NCBI GenBank assembly: GCA_016779265.1
Contig: JADHNY010000004.1
Location: 5,584 to 69,583, forward strand
DNA: 64,000 bases
Source: Pirellulales bacterium
GTDB taxonomy: Bacteria; Planctomycetota; Planctomycetia; Pirellulales; UBA1268
Direction of reading: 5' to 3'
In this document: positions 1 through 58,968 of the stretch, one piece after another
Layout: the number at the start of each line of letters is the position of its first letter
Position numbering within the stretch: position 1 is the stretch's first letter
The notes under the pieces: model-generated
Told to the model about the DNA's origin: nothing
Seen by the model: the letters and a program-made list of their open reading frames with translations, nothing else
Database searches by the model: none
Position numbers and translations under genes: made by a program

Positions 1-1026
1 GTTGACATGAAAGGTTCCGCAGAACGCCTCGCGAACACCCACACGCGTGTCCCGGAGTTGTGGCAGCCGTTGCAGCACCATATTGACCTTCAGCTGGGCA
101 CCGGTCGCGTCACCTGTCGGAGGCGTTGGACTCCTGCCCTGCAGCCGCTGGAGCACCGCCGGCGGACAGTTGGCAAGCACGTAACCTGCTTGCACGAGCT
201 GCTCATTCCCGTCGATCTCTACACGCACCGCGGCAGCTTGCTCATCCGCATCAATCGCTGTCACCCGAGCTGAGGTCACGATGCGGGCCCCGTACTGCCT
301 CGCCCGGGCCGCCAGCTGCTGCGTGACCGCCCCCATTCCACCCACCGGCAGATCCCAGTCGCCGGTACCGTTGCCAATCACGTGGTAGAGGAAACAGATG
401 TTTTGCCGCAGCGACCTATCGTGCAGATCGGCGAAGGTGCCGATCAGGGCATCTGTCGCGACAACGCCCCGAGCCAGATCCGTCTTGAGCGAACTTTCGA
501 TCACCTCTCCGAGTGGTCGCTCGACAAAGTCATGCCAGTCACTCGGCTCACACAGGGCCTGCATCTCCGCGGCCGTCCGCAGCGGCTCCGTGAGCGTTGG
601 AAACACAGCCTTCGCCATCCTCGCTGTGCGGTGATAAAAGGCTTGCCAGCGTTCTGCTTCAGCCGCGTCGCCCGTCGCGGCCGCGAACTGCTCCGCGAGC
701 GAGAACGGGTCCTCAACAACGGCAAGCCCTCTGGCAGGATCGGTGGGGCATGGCGTGTAGGAAGACACACGCCGTCGCACCACCTCCACCTGCAGCCCAA
801 GATCATGCATCAGCCACCGCGGCATCAGCGAGAGCAGGTAGGCATACTTCGACACGCGTGCCGGCACACCAGGAAAGATCTCCGCCGACACCGCGGCTCC
901 TCCGGTCTCGCGAGCACGCTCAAACACGACCACATCGAGACCGGCCCGTGCGAGCAGGCAGGCAGCCACAAGCCCGTTGTGACCGCCACCAACAATCACC
1001 ACGTCAACCCGCTGGCTCACCTGCAT
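1..1026 (-). CDS. NAD(P)/FAD-dependent oxidoreductase, phytoene dehydrogenase-like (partial; continues past the left edge)
   Basis: Missing from the ORF track because there is no stop in the window. Manual translation from ATG 1026 gives MQVSQRVDVVIVGGGHNGLVAACLLARAGLDVVVFER (Rossmann GxGxxG), then ARVSKYAYLLSLMP, and is still open at the edge (GAQLKVNMVLQRLPQLRD...EAFCGTFHVN). Confidence 0.85.
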   Translation of the reverse strand, partial: MQVSQRVDVVIVGGGHNGLVAACLLARAGLDVVVFERARETGGAAVSAEIFPGVPARVSKYAYLLSLMPRWLMHDLGLQVEVVRRRVSSYTPCPTDPARGLAVVEDPFSLAEQFAAATGDAAEAERWQAFYHRTARMAKAVFPTLTEPLRTAAEMQALCEPSDWHDFVERPLGEVIESSLKTDLARGVVATDALIGTFADLHDRSLRQNICFLYHVIGNGTGDWDLPVGGMGAVTQQLAARARQYGARIVTSARVTAIDADEQAAAVRVEIDGNEQLVQAGYVLANCPPAVLQRLQGRSPTPPTGDATGAQLKVNMVLQRLPQLRDTRVGVREAFCGTFHVN

Positions 1027-1208
1027 CTCTCCGGCTGAGATCGATTCCGTCTGTTCCCTGAAGCGAGCTGCCGCCTGCTTACGCGCCGAGCAACCTGCAT
1101 CGCTCACCATGCAACGCGAGCAGCGACACACTGGCCGAAGACGTTTTGTAAACTGATTGACGAGAGGAAGGGAACCGGGATCCACGCCACCTGCGAAGGA
1201 GCGAAACC

Positions 1209-3407
1209 GTGAAAGGCCAGACACTGACACGCCTTGTCGTCATGCTAATCTGCGTGACGGGAACTGAGGCCGGTGCTGCTGCTGGCCCCGAAGCGGTAGC
1301 GATCGACTTCACCCGAGACATCCAGCCGCTCTTCGCCAAGCACTGTCTGCTCTGCCACGGTCCTGATGCAGCCCAGGGCGGCCTGCGTCTACACACCCAG
1401 GCGGCCGCTGCAGCCCTCCTTGAGTCTGGAAGCCACGGGATTGTCCCTGGAGATCCAGCAGCCAGCGAGGTGCTTGCCCGTGTCACCTCTCGCGACCCTC
1501 TCCTACAGATGCCTCCTGAAGGGGACCGGCTCACGCCGGCAGAGACCGATCTCCTCGAAGCCTGGATCGCTCAAGGCGCCGCCTGGGAAACCCACTGGGC
1601 CTACCGTCCTCTCACGGTCCCTGCGGCTCCGACCGTCCACCACGAGCAGGCGGCGGCAACCAACATCGACCGCTTTGTGGTGGCAAAGCTCGAAGCGAAA
1701 GGGCTCACGCCATCATCTGAGGCAGACCGCACCACGCTGATGCGGCGTCTCTCCTATGACCTGATCGGCTTGCCTCCGAAGCCCGCCGAGGTCGACGCGT
1801 TCGTTGCCGACGACCGTGCAGACGCCTATGAACGGCTCGTCGATCGTCTTCTGGCATCACCCCATTTCGGTGAACGTTGGGGCCGCCACTGGCTCGACAA
1901 AGCCCGCTACGCGGACTCCGACGGCTATGAAAAAGACAACCATCGCCCGGATGCCTGGCGGTATCGCGACTGGGTGATTGACGCGATCAACAGCGACATG
2001 CCCTTTGATCAGTTCACAATCGAGCAGCTCGCAGGCGACCTCCTGCCGGAGGCCACCCCCAGCCAGCAGCTGGCGACCGCATTTCACCGACAGACGCTCA
2101 CCAATACCGAAGGGGGTGTTGATCGCGAGCAGTTCCGCGTCGCCGCGGTGATGGACCGCACTGAGACGCTGGGCACGGTGTGGCTGGGGCTTAGTGTCGG
2201 CTGTGCCCGCTGCCACACCCATAAATACGACCAGATCACACAGCAGGAGTACTACGAACTCTACGCCTTCTTCAACAACGCCGACGAAGCTGACGCAACG
2301 CTCCCAGACGCCGACGAGACCATTTCGGTGCGGGTGGTTCGTGAGCGAACCGACGACCGTCGGGCCACCCACATTCTCCGCCGGGGTGAGTTCAAGCAGC
2401 CGCTTGAGAGAGTGGAAACAGGCACGCTCGCCACCCTCCCACCGCTCACCCCGCGAGATGAAAACGCTGGACCAGATCGGCTTGACCTCGCCCAGTGGCT
2501 TGTCAGTGGAGCCAATCCTCTGGTGCCGCGGGTGGCGGTGAATCACCTCTGGAAACATCTCTTCGGTGAAGGCCTTGTGCCCACCATGAATGACTTTGGC
2601 GTGCGTGGAGACCGTCCGTCCCACCCAGCCCTGCTCGACTATCTTGCCACCCGGCTGATCGCCAGTGGATGGTCACGAAAAGCACTGATCAAAGAGATCG
2701 TGATGTCGTCCACATACCGGCAGTCGTCGCAGCACCGCGGCGATCTCGTTGAGATCGATCCAACCAACCGACTGCTTGCGCGACAGAATCGTTTTCGTGT
2801 TGAAGCGGAGATCATCCGTGATATCAGCCTGGCCGCCAGCGGCCTCCTCTCCCCAACACTCGGCGGAGCAAGCGTCTTCCCACCGATTCCTGAGGGAGTC
2901 ACAGACCTGACCTACAACAGCAGCTTCAAGTGGAAGATCAGCGATGGCGAAGACCGCTACCGCCGCGGCCTCTACACCTACTTTAAGCGAACCGCTCCGC
3001 ACCCCAACCTGATCACCTTCGACTGCCCCGACTCCAATGTCACCAACGTCGATCGTGATCGCAGCAACACGCCAATCGCCGCCTTGGTTACCCTCAACAA
3101 CGCCACGTTTGTGGAGGCAGCCCAGGCACTTGCCCAGCTGGTTCTCGCTGTCCCGGAGGCTTCCGACACCGAACGGCTGACACATGCCTTGCGTCGCTGC
3201 GTCGCCCGCAGGCCAACCGACGATGAGCTTCATGACTTCGCATCACTGCTGGCCACAAGCCGAGCCTGGTATGCCGAGCAACCAGAGCAGGCGAAAGAAC
3301 TGGTCGGCGAGCGGCCGGCCCCAGAGGCCGGGTTAGCGGAGAATGCCGCCTGGATCAGTGTTGTGAGGATCATGCTCAACCTCGATGAGTTTCTCACCCG
3401 CGAGTAG
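1209..3407 (+). CDS. Planctomycete cytochrome c (PSCyt1) + DUF1549 + DUF1553 protein
   Basis: Signal peptide; IDFTRDIQPLFAKHCLLCHG (CxxCH); HWAY; FGERWGRHWLDKARYADSDG; CARCHTH; PSHPALLDYLA; YTYFKRT; LITFDCPD. Confidence 0.92.
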   Translation: MKGQTLTRLVVMLICVTGTEAGAAAGPEAVAIDFTRDIQPLFAKHCLLCHGPDAAQGGLRLHTQAAAAALLESGSHGIVPGDPAASEVLARVTSRDPLLQMPPEGDRLTPAETDLLEAWIAQGAAWETHWAYRPLTVPAAPTVHHEQAAATNIDRFVVAKLEAKGLTPSSEADRTTLMRRLSYDLIGLPPKPAEVDAFVADDRADAYERLVDRLLASPHFGERWGRHWLDKARYADSDGYEKDNHRPDAWRYRDWVIDAINSDMPFDQFTIEQLAGDLLPEATPSQQLATAFHRQTLTNTEGGVDREQFRVAAVMDRTETLGTVWLGLSVGCARCHTHKYDQITQQEYYELYAFFNNADEADATLPDADETISVRVVRERTDDRRATHILRRGEFKQPLERVETGTLATLPPLTPRDENAGPDRLDLAQWLVSGANPLVPRVAVNHLWKHLFGEGLVPTMNDFGVRGDRPSHPALLDYLATRLIASGWSRKALIKEIVMSSTYRQSSQHRGDLVEIDPTNRLLARQNRFRVEAEIIRDISLAASGLLSPTLGGASVFPPIPEGVTDLTYNSSFKWKISDGEDRYRRGLYTYFKRTAPHPNLITFDCPDSNVTNVDRDRSNTPIAALVTLNNATFVEAAQALAQLVLAVPEASDTERLTHALRRCVARRPTDDELHDFASLLATSRAWYAEQPEQAKELVGERPAPEAGLAENAAWISVVRIMLNLDEFLTRE

Positions 3408-48075: not shown

Positions 48076-49728
48076 ATGGAGTATCCCATGCGATTGCTCT
48101 CCATACTGATCACGTCAGTTGTCTGCACGGCTACGGTTCTCACCGGCGCACTCGCAACGGCTGTCGAGCGACCAAACATCGTCTTCATCCTGGCAGATGA
48201 CCTTGGCTACGGTGATATCGAGGCATTCGGGGGCGATCTCTGCAATGTCGACACTCCTCACTTCGATGCACTCTGCGCCCAGGGCATGAAGTTCACCAAC
48301 GCCCACGTGACCAACTCCGTCTGCGTACCCAGCCGCACGTCGATCATGACTGGTCGATATGCCTTGCGGTTTGCCCCACCAGCCCAAGGGGGCCCCTGGG
48401 GCTTCCTTGGCCTGCAGTTCCCCACCACGCAGTTCACCCTCGGACGGATGCTGAAGCAGGCTGGCTTCACAACGGGCTACGTTGGCAAGTGGCACCTCGG
48501 CACACAGATGGCAACCCGTGATGGCGGCATTCAGAACGCCGCAAACACCGACTTCACCAAGCCCCTTGAGGTTGGCCCACGTGACTATGGATTTGACGAG
48601 AGTTTTATTCTGCCCGGCTCTCTCGACATGTTTCCCTACGCGTTCATCCACAATCACCAGTGGGTTGGCGATGTGACAGCGGAGAAAGGCTGGAGCGCCT
48701 TCAACCGACGTGGGCCGGCGGCTGAAGACTTCGAAGACGTCAACGTACTCGACACCTTCTGTAGCCAGGCCGAGCACTTCATCACCACGCAGGCCACAGT
48801 CGACACGCCCTTTTTCCTCTACGTTGCCCTCACCGCCCCCCACACTCCCACCTCCCCCTCACAAGAGTTCGAAGGCAAAAGCCGCATCGGCCTCTATGGC
48901 GACTTTGTGATGAATGCCGACGCCTGCATTGGCCGCGTGGTGGAGGCGTTGAAGAAAAACGGGCTCACTGAAAACACTTTGGTGATTGCCTCTTCTGATC
49001 ACGGTCCCGGTCACTACTCGGGCCGGCTGCGGAAGGCGACCGCCAACCAGATGCAGGAGATGGAGAAAGACGGTCATCGCCCCAACGGCCCTTGGCGAGG
49101 CTACAAGTTCTCCGTCTTTGAAGGTGGAACACGTGTGCCCTTCGCTGCCAAGTGGCCTGGCGTCGTACAGCCAGGGAGTACATCCGACGCCCTGATCGGT
49201 CTTCAGGATCTGATGGCCACCACCGCCGAGATTGCCGGCGTTGCTCTGGCAACCGACCAGGCCCCCGACTCGGTCAGTTTCCTGCCACTCATCAAAGACG
49301 CGACCGCACCGCCACCTCGCACATCGATGGTGATCCAGGGCACTCGCGGCAGCAGTCTTCGCGATGGTGACTGGAAACTCGTGCTCTGCCCGGGTAGCGG
49401 GAGCGCAGGCCCGTTCTTCACTGAGCCGGAAGCTGACGCCGCATGGCGATCAGCAGTCAAAGCCTTCGGCCGCAAGCCAATGTCCGCCGACGAACTTGAG
49501 CAGCCTCCGTTTCTGCAGCTGTTCAACCTTGCGAAAGATCCCGGTGAAACCACCAACCTGGCCGCGGCTCATCCAGAACGAATCCGCGAGATGATCGCTA
49601 CCTACCGAGAGATCCTTGAGAGCGGCCGCAGCACCCCCGGCCCCACGCTTCCAAATGGCCGGAAACTCAACGTGTTTCAACCCGTTCCATCTTTCGTCTG
49701 GGCAGAGACTGATGGGCGTTCGCCCTAG
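48076..49728 (+). CDS. Arylsulfatase (Cys-type)
   Basis: PNIVFILADDLGYGD; CVPSRTSIMTG; GKWHLG; SSDHG; YKFSVFEGGTRVP. Confidence 0.93.
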   Translation: MEYPMRLLSILITSVVCTATVLTGALATAVERPNIVFILADDLGYGDIEAFGGDLCNVDTPHFDALCAQGMKFTNAHVTNSVCVPSRTSIMTGRYALRFAPPAQGGPWGFLGLQFPTTQFTLGRMLKQAGFTTGYVGKWHLGTQMATRDGGIQNAANTDFTKPLEVGPRDYGFDESFILPGSLDMFPYAFIHNHQWVGDVTAEKGWSAFNRRGPAAEDFEDVNVLDTFCSQAEHFITTQATVDTPFFLYVALTAPHTPTSPSQEFEGKSRIGLYGDFVMNADACIGRVVEALKKNGLTENTLVIASSDHGPGHYSGRLRKATANQMQEMEKDGHRPNGPWRGYKFSVFEGGTRVPFAAKWPGVVQPGSTSDALIGLQDLMATTAEIAGVALATDQAPDSVSFLPLIKDATAPPPRTSMVIQGTRGSSLRDGDWKLVLCPGSGSAGPFFTEPEADAAWRSAVKAFGRKPMSADELEQPPFLQLFNLAKDPGETTNLAAAHPERIREMIATYREILESGRSTPGPTLPNGRKLNVFQPVPSFVWAETDGRSP

Positions 49729-49872
49729 CGTTCACATGCTGAACACGAACAGGGCAGCCGAGAGTGTGACAAGGACACGACTCATCACCCCTCCAGTGTC
49801 GTCGTGACCGTCGTTGGGTAGACTCGTGGTTTCGGGGACTAGGCACCGTTTGTGAAGAGAAGGACTTGGGGT

Positions 49873-51588
49873 ATGCACCGCACACGTCGCGCGATTCTGG
49901 CCAGTTTTGTTATTGCCACCATCACGGCGGCACCACTGCTCCAGGCAGCAGACACCGGCCCACAGCCACCTGCCTCGCAGCCAAATGTTGTCTGGCTCTC
50001 GGTTGAAGACATGAGCCCTTGGCTGGCTGCGTACGGTGATGAGACGGTGGCAACGCCTCATCTCAATCAGCTCGCCGCCGAGGGCGTGGTCTACGACAAC
50101 GCTTTTGCCACGTCGCCCGTCTGTGCACCGGCTCGCTCATCCCTGATCACCGGCATGTTCTGCACCCGCATCGGCACGATGCAGATGCGGAACAACTCGC
50201 CAAGCCCAGCGGCCGTCGAGAAAAACCCCGAGGCCTACCGCGAGATTCCCGGCTATGAAGGCCTGCCGCCAGCCTTCGTTCGCTGCTTTCCCGAGCACCT
50301 GCGGGCGGCAGGCTACTACTGCACCAACAACTCCAAGAAGGACTATCAGTTCAAGGAGCCGGTCACGGTCTGGGACGAGAGCAGTCGGAACGCTCACTGG
50401 AAAAACCGAGCTGACGGCCAGCCCTTTTTTGCCGTCTTCAACCATACAGGTACCCATGAGAGCCAGACCTTTCCAGATACCAAACCAGCTCCACGTGTGC
50501 TTGCTCCAGAAGACGCTCCCCTCCCTCCCTTTTATCCCGACACGCCTGCCGTCCGTGAGGCCGTCGCTCGCACCTACGACAACATCGTTCGAATGGACAA
50601 CTGGGTGGGGAAGCAGATGGCCGAACTCAAGGAAGCCGGGCTCCTCGAGACCACGATCGTGATCTTCTTTAGCGACCACGGCGTCGGCCTACCTCGCGGG
50701 AAACGTTCCTGCTTCGACACCGGCACACGCGTCCCCCTGATCGTGCGATATCCCGATGGCCGCGATGCGGGAACCCGTGAAGACCGCGTGGTGAGCTTCA
50801 TCGATTTCGGGCCTTCGGTTCTCTCTCTGGCAGGCATCCAGCCCGACAGCCGTCTTGATGGCACGCCCTTCCTCGGCACCTTTGCCACCGAGCGTGACGA
50901 CTATCGAAATGGCCACGCCTACGCCAATGCAGACCGCTTCGACGCGGTCTATGACCGGGCTCGTACCGTTTCCAATGGTCGCTACCGCTACACACGCAAC
51001 TTCATCACCGATCTCCCCTATCTGATTCGCAACGCCTACCGCGAGCGAATCCCCATGACCTTTGATCTCTATGCCCTGGAAGAGACTGGCCCGAAGACTC
51101 CGGCGCAGTGGCAGATGGCCGCCAAAAGCCGACCGGCCGAAGAGTTCTATGATGCCGAAGCAGACCCATGGGAAGTGGTCAACCTGATCGATGCTCCGGA
51201 GCACCAGGAACAGATCGCCGCCATGCGCAAGCACCTCGATGCGTGGATCGAGGCCACTGGCGACCTTGGCTTTGTCCTTCCGGAGACCACACTCGTCCGC
51301 CAGCACATCTGGCCACCGGAAGGCGTGCAGCCCACCACACCAACTGCCGAGATCAGCGACACCGCGGTACAAAAGGATGGCCGCACCGCCTTTGCCGTGA
51401 GTCTCACCTGCGAAGATCCAGCCGCGTCGATCGGCTACCGCCTCAGCACCAGCAAGAACTCCAAGGGACCGTGGCAGGTCTATACAGGTCCCTTTGAAAC
51501 AACTGGTGAGCAGCGGTTTCTGGAAGTGCAGACCCATCGGATCGGACATCTGCCCGCAACGACCGGTGCGTTGCTCGGGGGTGAGTAG
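49873..51588 (+). CDS. Sulfatase (Cys-type) with C-terminal Fn3-associated/CHB_HEX_C-like domain
   Basis: PNVVWLSVED; CAPARSSLITG; FSDHG; RGKR; C-terminal ASIGYRL...WQVYTGP. Confidence 0.9.
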   Translation: MHRTRRAILASFVIATITAAPLLQAADTGPQPPASQPNVVWLSVEDMSPWLAAYGDETVATPHLNQLAAEGVVYDNAFATSPVCAPARSSLITGMFCTRIGTMQMRNNSPSPAAVEKNPEAYREIPGYEGLPPAFVRCFPEHLRAAGYYCTNNSKKDYQFKEPVTVWDESSRNAHWKNRADGQPFFAVFNHTGTHESQTFPDTKPAPRVLAPEDAPLPPFYPDTPAVREAVARTYDNIVRMDNWVGKQMAELKEAGLLETTIVIFFSDHGVGLPRGKRSCFDTGTRVPLIVRYPDGRDAGTREDRVVSFIDFGPSVLSLAGIQPDSRLDGTPFLGTFATERDDYRNGHAYANADRFDAVYDRARTVSNGRYRYTRNFITDLPYLIRNAYRERIPMTFDLYALEETGPKTPAQWQMAAKSRPAEEFYDAEADPWEVVNLIDAPEHQEQIAAMRKHLDAWIEATGDLGFVLPETTLVRQHIWPPEGVQPTTPTAEISDTAVQKDGRTAFAVSLTCEDPAASIGYRLSTSKNSKGPWQVYTGPFETTGEQRFLEVQTHRIGHLPATTGALLGGE

Positions 51589-51653
51589 CAGGACTTCGAG
51601 TTCTGTTGTGAGTTGGCATATTTTGCTCGGCACCGCTCCGGAGTCGCGTCAGC

Positions 51654-52583
51654 ATGGAAGCACCGTCCACGAAACCTGTCCGCCGTGTCCGCGGCATCCT
51701 CGCTGTGGGTGCGATCATCATGCTCACGCTTGCGATGGGCATCGTCGCGGCTGTCGCCGCTGCCTGGATCTACTTCCATCCGAAGTACGAGTGGACTCGT
51801 GGAGTCGTCTACGGCGAACGGAACGGCACCGAACTCACACTCGACGTCGTCTCGCCAGCCAAGCCCAACGGAGTTGGCGTGGTGTTCGTCGTCAGCGGTG
51901 GCTGGAAGTCGGGCACGGGCTCCTTCCGCCCCTGGCTCGCGGCTCCGCTGCTGCGACACGGCTACACGGTGTTTCCCGTTTACCATCTCTCCCAGCCCGA
52001 TGCCTCCGTTAGTGAGATCTTTGAGGATGTCTCGCGTGGCGTGCGGTTTGTCAGGGCTCATGCGAAGGACTACGGGATCGATCCGAACCGGCTGGGGGTG
52101 ACTGGTGGCAGCGCCGGCGGCCACCTCTCGCTGATGCTCGCAACTCGCGGGGAACCAGGACCTGCCGATGCCGAGGATGCGGTCGCTCGCGAAAGCAGCG
52201 GCGTGCAGTCGGTGGCGATCTTCTATCCCGTCACCGACCTGACCGACCTGACCGGGTCGACCGAATTCGCCGGAGATGGCCAGCCGCCGAAGAGTTTTCT
52301 CAAGGCCTTCCGGCAAGAACCGCTTGACCTGCCGCGATGGCAGGAAACCTCGCAAGCCCTCTCCCCGATTCTCCACCTCAGCGAGCGTCTTCCTCCCACG
52401 CTGATCCACCACGGCAACGCCGACACACTCGTGCCCTTTAGTCAGTCAAAGAGGTTTATCGAGAAGGCGGAGCAGCTCGGCTGCACCGTGCACCTGAAAG
52501 AGGTGCCCGATGCTGGCCACGGCTGGCTGACAATGCCGCTGGATATCATGGCCTTTGCCGACTGGTTCGACCGTACGCTCTAA
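51654..52583 (+). CDS. Alpha/beta hydrolase (esterase/lipase, BD-FAE-like)
   Basis: VVSGGW; GGSAGGHL; HGNADTLVP; GHGW (Ser-Asp-His). Confidence 0.88.
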   Translation: MEAPSTKPVRRVRGILAVGAIIMLTLAMGIVAAVAAAWIYFHPKYEWTRGVVYGERNGTELTLDVVSPAKPNGVGVVFVVSGGWKSGTGSFRPWLAAPLLRHGYTVFPVYHLSQPDASVSEIFEDVSRGVRFVRAHAKDYGIDPNRLGVTGGSAGGHLSLMLATRGEPGPADAEDAVARESSGVQSVAIFYPVTDLTDLTGSTEFAGDGQPPKSFLKAFRQEPLDLPRWQETSQALSPILHLSERLPPTLIHHGNADTLVPFSQSKRFIEKAEQLGCTVHLKEVPDAGHGWLTMPLDIMAFADWFDRTL

Positions 52584-52647
52584 CGGCCTCACGTTTCGAC
52601 GTTTTCCATCTGACGCTCTCGCACACTCCCCTTTGGCTTTTCTTCTC

Positions 52648-54090
52648 ATGTCTCACCGACCGACTTTTCTGAGGGCCGCCTGCGGTGTGCTTCTTCTGCT
52701 GACGGGTGCTGCATTCGCTGACGACAACGTCCCTGACAACAACCAGCACGGTTGCGACTACGCCATCGTGATCTCAAAGGCGACCGCAGGCGATCCTGCC
52801 TGGCAGCAGGTCGTCACTGCCCTCCACACAAAGCATGCTGCTCGCGGCGTGCTGGTGTTTGAGTACGACACCGCTGTCGACGAGGTCGCCCAAGGCCTCA
52901 CCGAGCATATGCCCGCCTACACCTGCATCGTGGCCACGCCAGCAGAAGCAGGCCGCGACTTCGTGGCGAAGGTGCATCAGTTCACCCGCAGTCTCGACGA
53001 CGATCCCTACACCGACACGCTGTGGGGCATCCTTACCGGCTTCGATGCGGCCAACGCCCTCTCGATCGCCACCCATGCCGAGCCCTTGCGAATCGAACGA
53101 GTCACCTCCGGCACGGAACTCGCCATGGATCGCGTCAGGGAGGGCGTCTGGTTCTCTGAACTCGAGCCAAACCTGAAGGTGGTCAAACCTCGCGACACCC
53201 CAGCTGAGCGGGCCTTCACGGAAACAGACACGACCGCAGCGATTGCCTCCCGCCTCTCAACAGGGCAGACGGACCTTTTTGTCACCTCCGGCCATGCTAC
53301 GGAGCGGGGCTGGCAGATCGGCTTTCGCTATCGCAACGGCACGTTTCGCTCCCAGGCTGGCCAGCTCTTTGGTGTTGAGACCTCGGGCAATCGTTTTCCG
53401 ATTCACTCCGAAAACCCGAAGGTCTGGCTACCGATTGGCAACTGCCTCGCCGGCCACATTGACGGCCCCGATGCACTCGCCCTCGCGTTTCTCAACGCTG
53501 CAGGGGTGCACCAAATGCTGGGCTACACCGTCCCCACCTGGTTTGGCTACGCAGGCTGGGGCTGCCTCGACTACTTTGTCGAACAGCCTGGCCGCTACAC
53601 GCTTACCGAGGCCTTCCACGCCAACGGCCATGCCCTGATCTACAACCTGGAACAGGCCAGGCAGGGCAAGCCGGTCACCGTTCCACTTGAGGGGCTCCGC
53701 TTTGATCGCGACGTGCTTGCGTTTTACGGCGACCCTGCCTGGGAAGCCCGGATGGCAGACGGGCCTCTCAACTACAGCCAGTCCTTGCAGACAATGCCCC
53801 AGCCCGACGGTCGTTTACTGCTCACGCTCGACATCACACCGCTGCGTGAGAAAGACTCCTTCTCAACGGTGAACACGAACGGTTCCCAGCGGGGTGGCCG
53901 ACCGCTGGTAGCCTACCTCCCGCAGCGTCTGCTCAATCTCACGCTCGTCGCAGGCGACGCCTACGAACCTGTCCTCACAGACCGCTTTGTGCTTGTTTCC
54001 CACCCAGGCCCTGACTGGAATGGCGAACCGATCCGCATCGTGTTTTCTGGTCGTCCAGCAGCTGCAGCGATCGTCGGAGACACTCCGTGA
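52648..54090 (+). CDS. Secreted hypothetical protein; candidate clan CD (gingipain/C25-like) cysteine peptidase
   Basis: Signal peptide MSHRPTFLRAACGVLLLLTGAAFA; FVTSGHA and LPIGNCLAG; FYGDPAW. The CDS is solid; the family call is an inference. Confidence 0.6.
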   Translation: MSHRPTFLRAACGVLLLLTGAAFADDNVPDNNQHGCDYAIVISKATAGDPAWQQVVTALHTKHAARGVLVFEYDTAVDEVAQGLTEHMPAYTCIVATPAEAGRDFVAKVHQFTRSLDDDPYTDTLWGILTGFDAANALSIATHAEPLRIERVTSGTELAMDRVREGVWFSELEPNLKVVKPRDTPAERAFTETDTTAAIASRLSTGQTDLFVTSGHATERGWQIGFRYRNGTFRSQAGQLFGVETSGNRFPIHSENPKVWLPIGNCLAGHIDGPDALALAFLNAAGVHQMLGYTVPTWFGYAGWGCLDYFVEQPGRYTLTEAFHANGHALIYNLEQARQGKPVTVPLEGLRFDRDVLAFYGDPAWEARMADGPLNYSQSLQTMPQPDGRLLLTLDITPLREKDSFSTVNTNGSQRGGRPLVAYLPQRLLNLTLVAGDAYEPVLTDRFVLVSHPGPDWNGEPIRIVFSGRPAAAAIVGDTP

Positions 54091-55238
54091 TGCAGGCCAC
54101 GCCAGCAGCCACCGCTGCCCAGCTGCATACCTGGTGCGGCCGGGAGGTGGACTTTCTCGCTGCAGCTCCCGGTCGAATCAACCTGATTGGTGAGCATGTT
54201 GACTATCAGGGAGGCCTGGTGCTGCCAGCAGCCATCGACCTCAGTGTCTTTGCTGCGGCTGCTCGTCTCGACGAACCGGTCATCCGCCTACACACCTCCT
54301 TTCCAGGAGCAGACGAGGTGGTGATTCCGCTTGCGGCTCTGGCCTCTCAGTCTGGACCAGCCGCCTGGGCGAACTATCCAATCGGTGTGCTCGCCTGCTA
54401 CCAACAGGCCGGCCACGCGACCGGTGGCCTTGCGATCGCCTTTGATGCGAGCCTTCCCGCCGGAGCAGGTCTCAGCAGCAGCGCTGCCTTTGAGGCCGCC
54501 ACGGCCGTGATCATCGAACAGGCACTCGGCATCAGGCTTCCTGCCCGTGACCGCGCCCTGCTCTGCCAGCAAGCAGAGCATCGGTATGCCGGGGTGCCGT
54601 GCGGCATCATGGATCAGCTTGCAGTGAATGCGGGCCAGGCTGGTCACGCCCTGCTGATCGACTGCCAGTCGCTTGAAGTCAGCCCCACGCCTGTGCCCGA
54701 CAGTGTGGCGATGGTGGTTGTCGACAGTGGCGTCAAGCATGCCCTCGCCGACGGAGAATACGCCAAGCGACGCGCAGACTGTGAAGCTGCGGCCCAAACA
54801 CTCGGGGTCCGTTGTCTGCGTGAGGCCAGCCCAGAGATGGTGATTTCCGCCCAAACGCAGCTTGGCGAGCGAATCTTCCGCCGGGCGCGGCATGTGGTCA
54901 CGGAAGTTGAGCGAACGCGAAAGTTTGCAGCCGCGTTGGCTGAGCACCATCTTGAAGAAGCCGCTCGGTTAATGGCCGCCAGCCACGCCTCGTTACGAGA
55001 CGACTTCGAGGTCAGCTGTGACGAGCTCAACACTCTTGTGGAGATTGCCAACGGCATGGGCATCCGTGGATCGCGGATGATGGGAGGGGGGTTTGGCGGC
55101 AGTACGATCCAGCTCGTTCCTGTGGCAGATGCTCCAGCGATTGCTACCGCGATTGAACACGCTGCCGGCGGGCGTGGGCTTCGCGTGTCGGCTTTTCCGG
55201 TCACAGCTGCAGCGGCAGCAGCGCCGGTTGCGTTGTGA
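54087..55238 (+). CDS. galK: Galactokinase
   Basis: APGRINLIGEHVDY; GAGLSSSAA; CGIMDQ; RARHVVTE; GSRMMGGGFGG. Confidence 0.95.
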   Translation: MMQATPAATAAQLHTWCGREVDFLAAAPGRINLIGEHVDYQGGLVLPAAIDLSVFAAAARLDEPVIRLHTSFPGADEVVIPLAALASQSGPAAWANYPIGVLACYQQAGHATGGLAIAFDASLPAGAGLSSSAAFEAATAVIIEQALGIRLPARDRALLCQQAEHRYAGVPCGIMDQLAVNAGQAGHALLIDCQSLEVSPTPVPDSVAMVVVDSGVKHALADGEYAKRRADCEAAAQTLGVRCLREASPEMVISAQTQLGERIFRRARHVVTEVERTRKFAAALAEHHLEEAARLMAASHASLRDDFEVSCDELNTLVEIANGMGIRGSRMMGGGFGGSTIQLVPVADAPAIATAIEHAAGGRGLRVSAFPVTAAAAAAPVAL

Positions 55239-55391
55239 CCTCTCCAAGCAGATCATCCTGACAGGGAGTGACTGCGGTCGAGAAGCCGCCGCGTGCTGCG
55301 GCCGACCTGCCGCGTCCCTTGTCGAGTGGTTTCTGGACAGACTGCTCGTGTCGAGAGAAGCCGATGTATCAATGCTCGTGAGGTGCCTGCC

Positions 55392-57656
55392 GTGACCGTT
55401 CGCCACCTGCTCTGTTTTGCTGCGCTGCTTGCGGCAGCTTTCGCCGTTGCCTGCGAGACTCGCGCCGAGTTTGCCGACCCTGCCTGGCAGTACACGACAA
55501 AAGCTCCCGACGCCGGCTGGGAAAAGCCTGGGTTCGACGCTTCAGGATGGAAAACCGGCTTCGGCGGCTTCGGTGATCCCTCTACACCGGGGTCCCGTGT
55601 CAGCACCACCTGGTATACGCCGGAGATCTGGCTGCGACGGACCATCACCCTCGACGCCGTGCCTGCCGAGCCCGCCCTGCTGATCCATCACGACGAAGAT
55701 GCTGACGTGTTTATCAACGGTGAGAAAGCCGCGACTTTCGCAGGCTTCATCACCGAGTTTCAGCTCCACAAGCTCGATACGGCCGCGGCCAAGCTGCTGA
55801 AAGCCGGCGAGAACCTGATCGCGGTCCACTGTCGCCAGACCGGCGGTGGGCAGTCGATCGACGTCCACATCGTTGACGCTGCTGCTGTGCCAAAACTGCC
55901 AAAGCCCAAGCGGCCCGAACAGCCGTTCGTCTCGGAGCTGATCACCGCATGGGGCGAGAAGGTCACTCCCGAGAATGCCTGGCGGGAGTATCCCCGGCCG
56001 CAGCTTGTGCGGGAGAACTGGACCAATCTCAACGGCACCTGGAACTATGCGATCACCCCGATCAGCGCTGATGCTGCGAAGGAATGGGATGGGGACATTC
56101 TCGTCCCATTCGCAGTGGAATCGAAGCTCTCTGGGGTGCAACGGCTGCTGCACGACGACCAAGCCCTCTGGTATTCCAAGACATTCACCGCCACCCCGTC
56201 CGCTGCTCATCGCACGCTGCTGCATTTCGAAGCCTGCGACTACGCGATGAAGGCATGGCTCAACGGCGTCCACATCGGCAGCCATGTTGGTGGCAATCTG
56301 CCGTTTGCTTTCGACATTACCGACGCTCTGGCCGCTGCGGAAAACGGCTTGAGTGAGCTGATCGTTCGCGTGGAAGATGCCACCGGCGATTACCAGCTGC
56401 GAGGCAAGCAGAACGTCCGGCCCCACGGCATCTTCTACACCCAAGTCTCTGGGATCTATGGCACCGTCTGGCTTGAGCAGGTGCCCCAGACCTACCTCCG
56501 CGACATCGGCATCGACACCCGCTGTGATGGCACGGTGACCTTCACGCTCGATGTGGAAGGTCCGCAGCAGGAAGTCGAGATCGCCGCAGCGCTCAATGGC
56601 AAAACGGTTGCTGTCGCTGAGGCAGCGACAGCAGGCGAGTCAATCCAGCTAACAATCCCCGAGCCCAAGCTCTGGAGTCCGGATTCCCCCACACTCTACG
56701 ACCTCACCATCCGCGTCGGTGACGATCGCGTGACAAGTTACTTCGGCATCCGTGAAGTTGGCCGAGAGCAAGACGCCGAAGGCCACTGGCGGTTGACCCT
56801 CAATGGCGAACCGATTTTCCACTTCGGCCCTCTCGACCAAGGCTGGTGGCCCGACGGCCTCCTCACACCTCCGTCTGACGAGGCGATGCGTTGGGATGTC
56901 GACTACCTCAAGGCCGCTGGCTTCAACATGATCCGCAAGCACATCAAGGTGGAGCCGAGGCGGTTCTATGCCTACTGCGATCAGATTGGCATGCTTCTCT
57001 GGCAGGACCAGGTGGCTGGCTTCCCCAACCCACCATGGACCCGTCTCGATCCGAATCCAACCGACGTCGAGTGGCCCGAGGAAGCCCGTGCTCAGTTCAT
57101 GGACGAGCTCGACACGATGATCACTCAGCTCGACACGCATCCGAGCATCGCGGTCTGGGTTCCCTTCAACGAAGCATGGGGCCAGCACCGGACCGTTGAG
57201 GTGGGCGAGTGGACGGTCGCTCGTGACCCATCACGCATCGTCAACATTGCCAGCGGTGGCAACTTCTGGCCTGCCGGCCATATCGTGGACGAGCATCGTT
57301 ACCCCCATCCTGGTTTCCCCTTCCACCTCGACACCAACGGTCGCTTCGACGACTTCATCAAGGTGGTCGGTGAGTTTGGCGGCCATGGCCTTCCGGTCCA
57401 GGGTCACCTCTGGGACAACTCAACGCGAAACTGGGGCTACGGCGGACTCCCTAAGAACAAGGCTGAGTACCTCGAGCGGTACCGCGAATCGATTCGGCGG
57501 CTTGTCGAGCTCAAAGGCCGAGGCATCGCTGCTGGCGTCTACACCCAGACCAGCGATGTGGAAGGCGAGATCAACGGACTGGTCACCTACGACCGGGCTG
57601 AGATCAAAATCCCTGCCAAGCAGCTCAAGAAGATGCATGAGCAGCTCTACAAGTAG
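55392..57656 (+). CDS. GH2 glycoside hydrolase (beta-galactosidase-like) with N-terminal carbohydrate-binding-like domain
   Basis: EYPRPQ; NLNGTW; LHFEACDY; SGIYGTVWLE; LDQGWWPDG; RKHIKVEP; WVPFNEAWG; GEFGG; NGLVTYDR. Likely GTG start at 55392. Confidence 0.9.
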   Translation: MTVRHLLCFAALLAAAFAVACETRAEFADPAWQYTTKAPDAGWEKPGFDASGWKTGFGGFGDPSTPGSRVSTTWYTPEIWLRRTITLDAVPAEPALLIHHDEDADVFINGEKAATFAGFITEFQLHKLDTAAAKLLKAGENLIAVHCRQTGGGQSIDVHIVDAAAVPKLPKPKRPEQPFVSELITAWGEKVTPENAWREYPRPQLVRENWTNLNGTWNYAITPISADAAKEWDGDILVPFAVESKLSGVQRLLHDDQALWYSKTFTATPSAAHRTLLHFEACDYAMKAWLNGVHIGSHVGGNLPFAFDITDALAAAENGLSELIVRVEDATGDYQLRGKQNVRPHGIFYTQVSGIYGTVWLEQVPQTYLRDIGIDTRCDGTVTFTLDVEGPQQEVEIAAALNGKTVAVAEAATAGESIQLTIPEPKLWSPDSPTLYDLTIRVGDDRVTSYFGIREVGREQDAEGHWRLTLNGEPIFHFGPLDQGWWPDGLLTPPSDEAMRWDVDYLKAAGFNMIRKHIKVEPRRFYAYCDQIGMLLWQDQVAGFPNPPWTRLDPNPTDVEWPEEARAQFMDELDTMITQLDTHPSIAVWVPFNEAWGQHRTVEVGEWTVARDPSRIVNIASGGNFWPAGHIVDEHRYPHPGFPFHLDTNGRFDDFIKVVGEFGGHGLPVQGHLWDNSTRNWGYGGLPKNKAEYLERYRESIRRLVELKGRGIAAGVYTQTSDVEGEINGLVTYDRAEIKIPAKQLKKMHEQLYK

Positions 57657-57675
57657 GGCGTCTCCCCACAAGGAA

Positions 57676-58968
57676 TCAGCCAGCAAAGGTGGCCACGAGC
57701 TTGAGCACCGTTCGGGCGGTCAAAAGCGTGGTCACCACCAGGCCTAGTGACGCCATCACGAGCATCCAGCGGGGAATTTTCCTGGCCCCCGTCAGTTCCG
57801 GCCGGGTCGCCAGATAGAGCAGCGTGGCTGCGAGTGCGGGCAGTCCCAGCACGGTCGATGCCTGGGCGACTGTAATCGCAGCAACAGGCTTGATGCCCAT
57901 CAGCTGGCAGCCAATCGCAATCCCCATAGCGATCAGTAGAGCGGCCACCGTCGCATGCTTCGTGCCGCGGTCATTCATCGTTTCTCCAAAGCCAAAGCCG
58001 TCAGCAAGCATGTTGCCGCCGATCAACGCGTTGACCATGAAGGCCCCAAAGCCACCAGCAAAGATGCCGGTGCTGAAGACGAGGGTGGCATAACGGCCAA
58101 ACAGCGGCTCAAACTGCCGGGCGACATCGCTGACGTTGGTGAGCGTGGCGGGATCGACATCCGTACCATGCAGCGCCGCAGCCGCTGTGCTCATCAGGAT
58201 CACCGAAACACCGCCGAGCACCATGATGCCGGCGAGAGAGTCGACCATGCCCTTGCGTGCATCAGCGATCCCCCAGCCACGGGCCCGCACGTTGTAGGCC
58301 TGGTAGAAGGCTCCTGCCACAGAAAAGGTCGTTGCCACTAGGGCCTGCAGCACCGTCACATTTGCATCCGCCTTCGGTGAGAGCAGCATCGCAAAGCCAC
58401 CTTCGGGCGGTGATGGAATCAGCCCTCGCAGCATGGCGGCAATGTCTGGCCTAGCCAAAACGAAGTTCACCAGGAACGAACAGACCACGACCAGCACGAT
58501 GCCCTTCAGGAGTTTCTCGACCGGCTTGTAGAGATTGCTGAATCGGTAAATCACCGCGATCACAAAGGCATTGACCGCCAGCAGCACTGCCACGGGCATC
58601 AGCGGAGAGCCGTCGCTGCCCAGCGGCAGCCCAAAGGCCTGCAAGGCGGCCACCACAGCGATGTTGTTGCTGACCTGAAAACCCACCACGACGAGAAACA
58701 GGCAAAGCCCCACGAACGCAGCAACACCTCGCCCCAAACGGGCGGCAACCTCGCCAAGGAGTGTTCGCTCAAACACAACCCCAAGCCGTGCCGAAAGCAC
58801 GATCATGCCCCACATCAAGGCAGCCGCGGAGACCACCACCCAGAGCATGGAGTAGCCGTAGATTGCTCCCGTCTTGGAGCTCATCAGCATGCTGCCAGGT
58901 CCACAGACCACGGCTGCCACAATGATCGCTGGCCCAACTGACCGAAGAACTGAGAGCAGTCCCTGCAT
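57676..58968 (-). CDS. NRAMP-family divalent metal (or related) transporter
   Basis: GPAIIVAAVVCGPGS; YGYSMLW; FQVSNN; ATTFS; about 11 TM segments. Confidence 0.8.
   Translation of the reverse strand: MQGLLSVLRSVGPAIIVAAVVCGPGSMLMSSKTGAIYGYSMLWVVVSAAALMWGMIVLSARLGVVFERTLLGEVAARLGRGVAAFVGLCLFLVVVGFQVSNNIAVVAALQAFGLPLGSDGSPLMPVAVLLAVNAFVIAVIYRFSNLYKPVEKLLKGIVLVVVCSFLVNFVLARPDIAAMLRGLIPSPPEGGFAMLLSPKADANVTVLQALVATTFSVAGAFYQAYNVRARGWGIADARKGMVDSLAGIMVLGGVSVILMSTAAAALHGTDVDPATLTNVSDVARQFEPLFGRYATLVFSTGIFAGGFGAFMVNALIGGNMLADGFGFGETMNDRGTKHATVAALLIAMGIAIGCQLMGIKPVAAITVAQASTVLGLPALAATLLYLATRPELTGARKIPRWMLVMASLGLVVTTLLTARTVLKLVATFAG

Follow-up and report, generated by a model that had tools for sequence, protein, structure and literature searches.

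Results

A predicted secreted protein with a conserved His-Cys pair

Here we describe a gene in a 64,000-nucleotide stretch of contig JADHNY010000004.1 from a Pirellulales bacterium (the window, in whose numbering the positions of this gene and its neighbors are given, all on the + strand). The gene, at 52648..54090, encodes a protein of 480 amino acids (aa), P0001, that resembles the gingipains, cysteine peptidases of family C25 in clan CD, and its stop codon overlaps the start of galK. The open reading frame (ORF) runs from an ATG at 52648, a start backed by the N-termini of homologues, to a TGA at 54088-54090. Its N-terminus (MSHRPTFLRAACGVLLLLTGAAFA, followed by DDN) looks like a Sec signal peptide spanning residues 1-25 (52648..52722), with a basic n-region (MSHRPTFLR), a hydrophobic core, and an AxA site after which cleavage would separate AFA from DD. 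The same region appears as a helix of low confidence at residues 7-21 in the structure model described below, and all aligned homologues have hydrophobic N-termini.

The candidate catalytic His216 (motif TSGHA, context DLFVTSGHATER) is encoded at 53293..53295, and the candidate nucleophile Cys266 (motif GNCLAG, context VWLPIGNCLAGH, also given as KVWLPIGNCLAGH) follows 50 residues later at 53443..53445. An Asp-rich block, LDDDPYTDxLWGILTG, occupies residues 117-131 (52996..53040), and the sequence FYGDP at residues 359-363 includes a conserved YGDP motif (residues 360-363, 53725..53736). The initial annotation of this DNA had located the ORF, the His and Cys codons, FYGDP, and the overlap with galK at the correct coordinates, and its proposal that the protein is secreted agrees with the Sec-like N-terminus and the hydrophobic N-termini of the homologues.

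Conservation was scored across 138 family representatives, each 31-50% identical to P0001. His216 is kept in 135 and Cys266 in 136 of them, and both are among the ten most conserved columns, as the initial annotation would have predicted for a catalytic pair; retention at this level of identity argues that the motifs are not due to chance. Conservation extends to the residues around the pair, with Ser214 kept in 133 representatives, Gly264 in 135, Asn265 in 136, and G269 in 128; in the resulting motif, G-N-C-L-A-G, the residue that precedes Cys266 is Asn and not Ala. The remaining motifs are similarly retained: Y360 in 128, G361 in 135, D362 in 130, and P363 in 136 representatives, and D117, D119, D123, W126, T130, and G131 in 126-136 each.

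A large planctomycete family without a domain model

P0001 had initially been considered an orphan, a view that our searches overturned. A word-indexed search recovered more than 2000 homologues among 8000 candidates scored, an exhaustive phmmer search yielded 773 clusters at 50% identity (331 of these at E <= 1e-30), and a scan of GTDB species found a relative encoded in at least 470 species genomes. Among the best 120 homologues, one is 97% identical to P0001 and the remaining 119 range from 52-71% identity across ~90% of its length; none has a Pfam domain, all are listed as hypothetical, and most come from metagenome-assembled genomes of Planctomycetota. Nearly all homologues belong to this phylum, with carriers that include Pirellulales, Planctomycetaceae, Schlesneria, Rubripirellula, and Phycisphaerae, as well as Bremerella cremea JCM 17758 and Aeoliella sp. 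SH292, which are both in culture. The gene occurs patchily, in 5 of 6 genomes of the genus, 5 of 19 from the rest of the family, and 2 of 16 from the rest of the order, and is therefore accessory rather than core. In a sample of the phylum, 49 of 301 genomes match at E <= 1e-3, about half of them through weak, partial N-terminal matches.

Existing annotation resources do not describe this family. Pfam gave no match for P0001 at E <= 1, nor for any of 48 aligned homologues at E <= 10; Pfam and NCBIfam applied to the protein and its homologues returned noise only and no family model; and PDB sequences yielded no match at E <= 10, either by phmmer or by hmmsearch with the profile. Neither literature searches on gingipains and C25 peptidases in Planctomycetes nor a paper on fucoidan degradation by planctomycetes (PMC11685898) yielded anything relevant. 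Family members are currently labeled ‘hypothetical’ or, wrongly, ‘zinc protease’. The latter JGI name is attached to several homologues (P0034, P0038, P0045, P0052, P0057, P0092, P0111, and P0118); neither HExxH nor another metalloprotease motif is present, no match supports the name, and the label is probably a propagated mis-annotation.

Predicted fold

An AlphaFold2 model built from a 48-sequence alignment reached a predicted local distance difference test score (pLDDT) of 88.9 and a predicted template modeling score (pTM) of 0.88. It begins with an N-terminal α/β subdomain of alternating strands and helices (residues ~38-190, 52759..53217), equivalent to gingipain subdomain A. A second, putatively catalytic α/β subdomain (residues ~191-370, 53218..53757) contains both His216 and Cys266, and its modeled elements follow one another as strand 210-213, His216, a β-hairpin insert at 232-252, strand 258-262, Cys266, helix 277-284, and strand 287-293. 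His216 lies three residues past strand 210-213 (LFVT) and Cys266 four past strand 258-262 (KVWLP), so that in the model the His precedes the Cys and each comes after a hydrophobic β-strand, the order of clan CD. The C-terminal domain is all-β and immunoglobulin (Ig)-like (residues ~371-470, 53758..54057), with seven modeled strands between residues 376 and 470.

Foldseek comparison of the model with the PDB returned only three matches at E <= 1e-3, all of them gingipain R (RgpB): 1cvr at 1.9e-6 and 4ief at 2.5e-6 and 1.2e-5. These matches have a probability of 1.00 and ~500 aligned columns, a span that would take in the Ig-like domain of RgpB. The comparison with RgpB that the initial annotation had called for thus came out in its favor, with RgpB as the sole significant match in the PDB. 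The model predicts a gingipain-type fold, in which two α/β subdomains, the second of them the caspase-like catalytic half, are followed by an Ig-like domain. The next matches, to periplasmic binding proteins and similar structures, have E >= 0.02 and template modeling (TM) scores of at most 0.17. A single JGI name in the family, ‘ABC substrate-binding protein’, was rejected on these values.

A profile chain to peptidase family C25

Sequence evidence for a relationship to C25 came through an intermediate family. A search of the phylum gave weak matches of query residues ~35-141 to longer proteins that form another family without annotation, which we term the bridge family (P0272-like proteins of ~500 aa from Planctomycetota/Phycisphaerae), which is the closest sequence relative outside the P0001 family. 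Four of its proteins were retrieved, and they carry clan-CD motifs such as LLFFSHGYPDE, ILVNCACYNG, and ILFGDPAF; the family motifs are FFSHGYP, LVNCACYNG, and YGDPA. Aligned by hhalign, the P0001 and bridge families (alignment A3) match at E 1.2e-18, and at E 3e-22 with a more diverse profile, with probabilities of 99.1-99.5 over ~330-336 columns and with His216 placed on the bridge His (SHG); the N-terminal subdomain is the most confident part of this match. The bridge family in turn matches genuine planctomycete proteins of PF01364 (Peptidase_C25) (E 5.3e-5 and 8e-4) in alignments that pair His with His and Cys with Cys, the SHG His of the bridge family falling on the GHG His of the PF01364 proteins. 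Two bridge members have precomputed PF01364 matches and a third is named ‘Peptidase family C25’ by JGI. The model of the bridge family (pLDDT 92.9) shows the same order of secondary structure as the P0001 model, and its Foldseek matches include gingipain K (Kgp; 1e-8 and 7.8e-8), separases (2e-4 to 7e-4), and CHAT.

The individual motifs can be followed along this chain. The Asp-rich block has its counterparts in VDDDPFVDFEYGFITG of the bridge family and DLDDDxVPDLAIGRLT of the PF01364 proteins, and the YGDP motif in YGDPA and LLGDPLL, respectively. Direct alignment of the P0001 family to the PF01364 proteins, tried with a small C25 alignment, a larger one, and a sub-profile of the Cys region, does not reach significance but is co-linear. 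It sets the N-terminal strand and the DDD block on their C25 counterparts, and it puts Cys266 on the ACYxG Cys, with the helix that comes after it also in register.

Like P0001, bridge proteins are predicted to be secreted and have the same order of subdomains. They differ in having the canonical His-Gly and Ala-Cys pairs, a His-Cys spacing of 32 residues, an insert after the Cys, and different C-terminal domains and fusions, among them LanC-like and HEAT domains. The members retrieved lie at 947-2512 (-) in locus L016, 280-3018 (+) in L014, 1808-4012 (-) in L015, and 235-2256 (+) in L013. Of these, one has a LanC-like domain (PF05147, E 2.6e-44) and a second has HEAT repeats as its fused partner; the L013 member, read by eye, has Cys in place of the His (MTGCGDP).

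A comparison with the PF01364-positive planctomycete proteins, annotated as ‘C25 family cysteine peptidase’ (alignments A2 and A5), defines how far the P0001 family stands from C25. These proteins come from the same phylum, are of similar size (~520-530 aa), have a signal peptide, and share the motif order of an N-terminal strand, DDD block, His, Cys, and GDP. They score 180-225 bits with the PF01364 hidden Markov model (HMM) in 12 genomes of the same order, against a curated cut-off of 23 bits, whereas P0001 falls below this cut-off. Among 24 genomes sampled from the taxonomic family of the window, besides its own, none has a PF01364 match and 10 have the new family, and in the genomes sampled the two families are largely complementary in occurrence. 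Relatedness to C25 and clan CD is well supported at the superfamily level. Since the PF01364 model does not match, P0001 represents a family of its own, at superfamily distance from C25, rather than a strict member. The initial suggestion of a new C25-like branch in Planctomycetes is therefore borne out for the fold, the superfamily, and the His-then-Cys arrangement, through the Foldseek matches, the profile chain, and the near-invariance of both residues, and fails for strict C25 membership.

The closest known enzymes are RgpB and Kgp of Porphyromonas gingivalis (MEROPS C25, clan CD; PDB 1CVR, 4IEF, 4RBM, and 6I9A). P0001 has in common with them two α/β subdomains and an Ig-like domain, a His before a Cys with each residue just after a consecutive β-strand, an Asp-rich DDDxxxD...G..T block, C-x-x-G after the Cys strand, and the GDP motif. 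In contrast to these likenesses, sequence identity is only 8-9% without a PF01364 match, the His is followed by Ala where gingipains have Gly, and the His-Cys spacing is 50 residues, including the three-strand β-hairpin insert at 232-252, compared to 33 in RgpB. P0001 also lacks the ~200-aa prodomain, the haemagglutinin/adhesin domains, and the C-terminal T9SS (type IX secretion system) domain found in gingipains. It is not a gingipain proper: the first strand of the catalytic domain begins at residue 38, directly after the signal peptide, and the C-terminus ends ~10 residues past the Ig-like domain. Unlike the gingipains, it belongs to an environmental planctomycete with a carbohydrate-related gene context.

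The sortase PorU (C25-type), the separases (C50), caspases (C14), and legumain (C13) have the same caspase-hemoglobinase core and His-then-Cys dyad, and none of them is a significant Foldseek match for P0001 in the PDB. PorU, which is of the C25 type and serves as sortase of the T9SS, sets a precedent for a different activity: P0001 might be a transpeptidase or sortase-like processing enzyme that, as PorU, GPI8, and the legumain ligases do, cuts a sorting or maturation signal and transfers the protein to an acceptor. The very high conservation of the family would fit an enzyme with one specific substrate. We nevertheless regard this as highly unlikely, since the patchy distribution of the gene is a poor fit to a core sorting machine and no conserved candidate gene for a substrate or acceptor lies nearby in the related loci compared. 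Unlike PorU, P0001 has no evidence of a partner secretion system, and to our knowledge no T9SS is expected in Planctomycetota.

Genomic context and domain fusions

The gene lies within a same-strand run of five genes (49852-57656) separated by 65, 64, -4, and 54 nt. A sulfatase with a signal peptide (49852..51588; Pfam Sulfatase, 4.6e-34) is followed by a membrane-anchored or secreted esterase of the BD-FAE/α-β-hydrolase type (51654..52583; Pfam BD-FAE, 2.6e-34), which is syntenic in the closest relatives. The C25-like gene comes next, then galK for galactokinase (54087..55238; Pfam GalKase_gal_bdg at 1.5e-18, GHMP_kinases_N, and GHMP_kinases_C), and finally a glycoside hydrolase of family GH2 (55293..57656; Pfam Glyco_hydro_2_N, Glyco_hydro_2, and Glyco_hydro_2_C). 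Judged from this arrangement, the cluster is likely an operon in this genus. It looks like one for a sulfated, acetylated galactoside or a galactose-rich glycoconjugate, and it is conserved in relatives at ~64-72% identity (L026, L039, L040, and L054). A promoter and terminator scan of 49500-58000 gave results no better than shuffled sequences, with no prominent site.

At the junction with galK, the sequence GTGATG allows an overlap of 4 nt (GTG start at 54087) or of 1 nt (ATG start at 54090), and a GGAG at 54076-54079 lies 7-10 nt upstream of the galK start. The overlap from which translational coupling had initially been proposed is therefore present in the window, but it is not a family-wide trait: galK is directly downstream in 3 of 66 related loci with enough downstream flank, all of them close relatives, and only the closest clade retains the arrangement (for example P0004, 71% identical). 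The coupling is a local, lineage-specific operon arrangement, and galK was rejected as a functional partner of the family.

Elsewhere in the family, the commonest neighbor is an AP_endonuc_2 gene (a xylose-isomerase-like TIM barrel with a twin-arginine translocation (TAT) signal), located directly upstream in the same orientation at 12 of 62 related loci, as at 991-1977 (+) in L045, and overlapping by 4 nt in the three loci where both genes were called (L031, L035, and L036). Other loci have SASA or GDSL esterases, a pair of GH16 and GH29 genes, or unrelated genes as neighbors, and 3keto-disac_hyd, GFO_IDH_MocA, and amidohydrolase genes are found near the gene in some. Carbohydrate-active or esterase neighbors thus recur across loci, and no partner is present in more than ~20% of them.

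Domain fusions provide a second kind of context. A C-terminal transglutaminase-like core domain, of the Cys-protease type, was found in 10 of 17 long relatives scanned, and other long relatives carry FGE-sulfatase, CBM9, BACON, CBM96, LamG, C14 caspase, HEAT repeat, or protein kinase domains. The transglutaminase-like, C14 caspase, CBM9, BACON, CBM96, and LamG modules fit an extracellular action on protein or glycoprotein. The transglutaminase-fused relatives (P0135, P0145, P0147, P0149, P0150, P0156, P0157, P0161, P0168, and P0187) are ~800 aa long, with the C25-like module followed by the transglutaminase-like domain at residues ~600-720, and combine two Cys-protease-type domains in one secreted protein.

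Given these predominantly sugar-related neighbors, the same fold and dyad might act on a non-peptide or glycan-linked bond, such as a glycoconjugate amide or ester, an N-acyl sugar, or a glycopeptide linkage, so that P0001 would serve periplasmic carbohydrate catabolism and not be a protease. The sulfatase, BD-FAE esterase, galK, and GH2 genes in the window are consistent with such a role, as are the esterases and the GH16 and GH29 pair at other loci, the often overlapping AP_endonuc_2 gene and the sugar-related genes found with it, the many invariant Trp, Tyr, and Gln residues around the dyad, and the fusion of some relatives to CBMs or FGE-sulfatase domains. Sulfatases and sugar genes are, however, very abundant in planctomycete genomes, so that proximity to them is weak evidence, and no single partner recurs in more than about a fifth of loci. 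The commonest fusion partner, the transglutaminase-like domain, is directed at protein, and every characterized clan-CD enzyme that we know of targets peptide bonds, either in hydrolysis or in transpeptidation. We consider a glycan-linked target unlikely. It is distinctly unlikely, in our view, that a caspase/gingipain-fold Cys-His family was recruited into periplasmic glycoconjugate catabolism alongside TAT-exported TIM-barrel enzymes, esterases, and sulfatases, where it might act as a cysteine-type glycopeptidase or as an amidase or esterase on a sugar-linked bond. If true, glycan degradation would for the first time be linked to a clan-CD activity.

Discussion

We favor the interpretation, and consider it rather likely, that P0001 belongs to a new C25-like family and is a secreted, active cysteine peptidase of clan CD. 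The family is large, unannotated, and mostly planctomycete, and constitutes a remote sister of family C25. The fold and the homology follow from the RgpB matches and the profile chain, while catalytic roles for His216 and Cys266 are suggested by the near-invariance of both residues and by how they align with the C25 dyad, and specificity for peptide bonds would be expected by analogy with the rest of the clan.

In the mechanism that we propose, P0001 would be exported by the Sec pathway as an enzyme of gingipain architecture (peptidase C25, clan CD, caspase-hemoglobinase), with two α/β subdomains and an Ig-like β-sandwich. Cys266, in the loop after strand 258-262, would serve as the nucleophile and His216, in the loop after strand 210-213, as the general base or acid, and a peptide (amide) bond would be hydrolyzed via an acyl-thioester intermediate. 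Since P0001 has neither a prodomain nor a T9SS tail, it is probably made directly as an active periplasmic or extracellular enzyme, without passing through a zymogen. The gene neighborhoods and the fusions weakly suggest that its substrates could be glycosylated or sulfated proteins, degraded in the course of glycoconjugate scavenging.

Several observations weigh against a peptidase of the C25 type. The PF01364 HMM has no match in the window’s own genome, and the direct hhalign comparison of the P0001 family with PF01364 proteins is not significant (E 0.12-0.43). The matches to RgpB have TM-scores of only 0.42-0.48 and root-mean-square deviations of 10-11 Å, so that the overall superposition is loose. 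At the active site, the residue after His216 is Ala in 119 of the 138 representatives, Gly in 15, and Ser in 3, which means that the clan-CD Gly is mostly absent, and residues 217-224 (ATERGWQI, 53296-53319) are the only internal stretch modeled with pLDDT < 50. Conservation is unusually high for a secreted protease, with 52-71% identity in 119 of the 120 listed homologues, and the neighbors are sugar-metabolic rather than proteolytic; taken together, these last two points could indicate a non-proteolytic substrate. The poorly modeled loop after His216 belongs to HATERDWQIG, the motif that the family conserves best, and may cover the active site as a mobile lid.

The change from HG to HA and the poorly modeled loop would also be compatible with a pseudo-enzyme, that is, a non-catalytic binding or scaffold protein that has kept the fold, as would the periplasmic sugar-binding proteins among the lower Foldseek matches and the one JGI record named ‘substrate-binding protein’. 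Pseudo-enzymes normally lose their catalytic residues, whereas His and Cys are kept here in ~98% of representatives at 31-50% identity, along with the small residues that flank them, and the sugar-binding-protein matches are neither significant nor structurally close (E >= 0.02, TM <= 0.17). A non-catalytic role therefore appears most improbable.

An active peptidase thus remains our preferred reading, and the family is probably a new and sizeable branch of a known protease clan and not a new kind of system. Clan-CD peptidases, which comprise the caspases, legumains, separases, and gingipains, are few and well studied, and the P0001 family adds to them a divergent active-site variant with His-Ala, Asn-Cys, and an insert that extends the His-Cys spacing to 50 residues. 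For a family of at least 773 clusters (50% identity) to lack any Pfam or NCBIfam model is a real annotation gap, and defining the family would allow the re-annotation of hundreds of planctomycete genomes. Moreover, the family provides a testable candidate for the means by which planctomycetes, alongside their many sulfatases, may attack glycoprotein or proteoglycan substrates.

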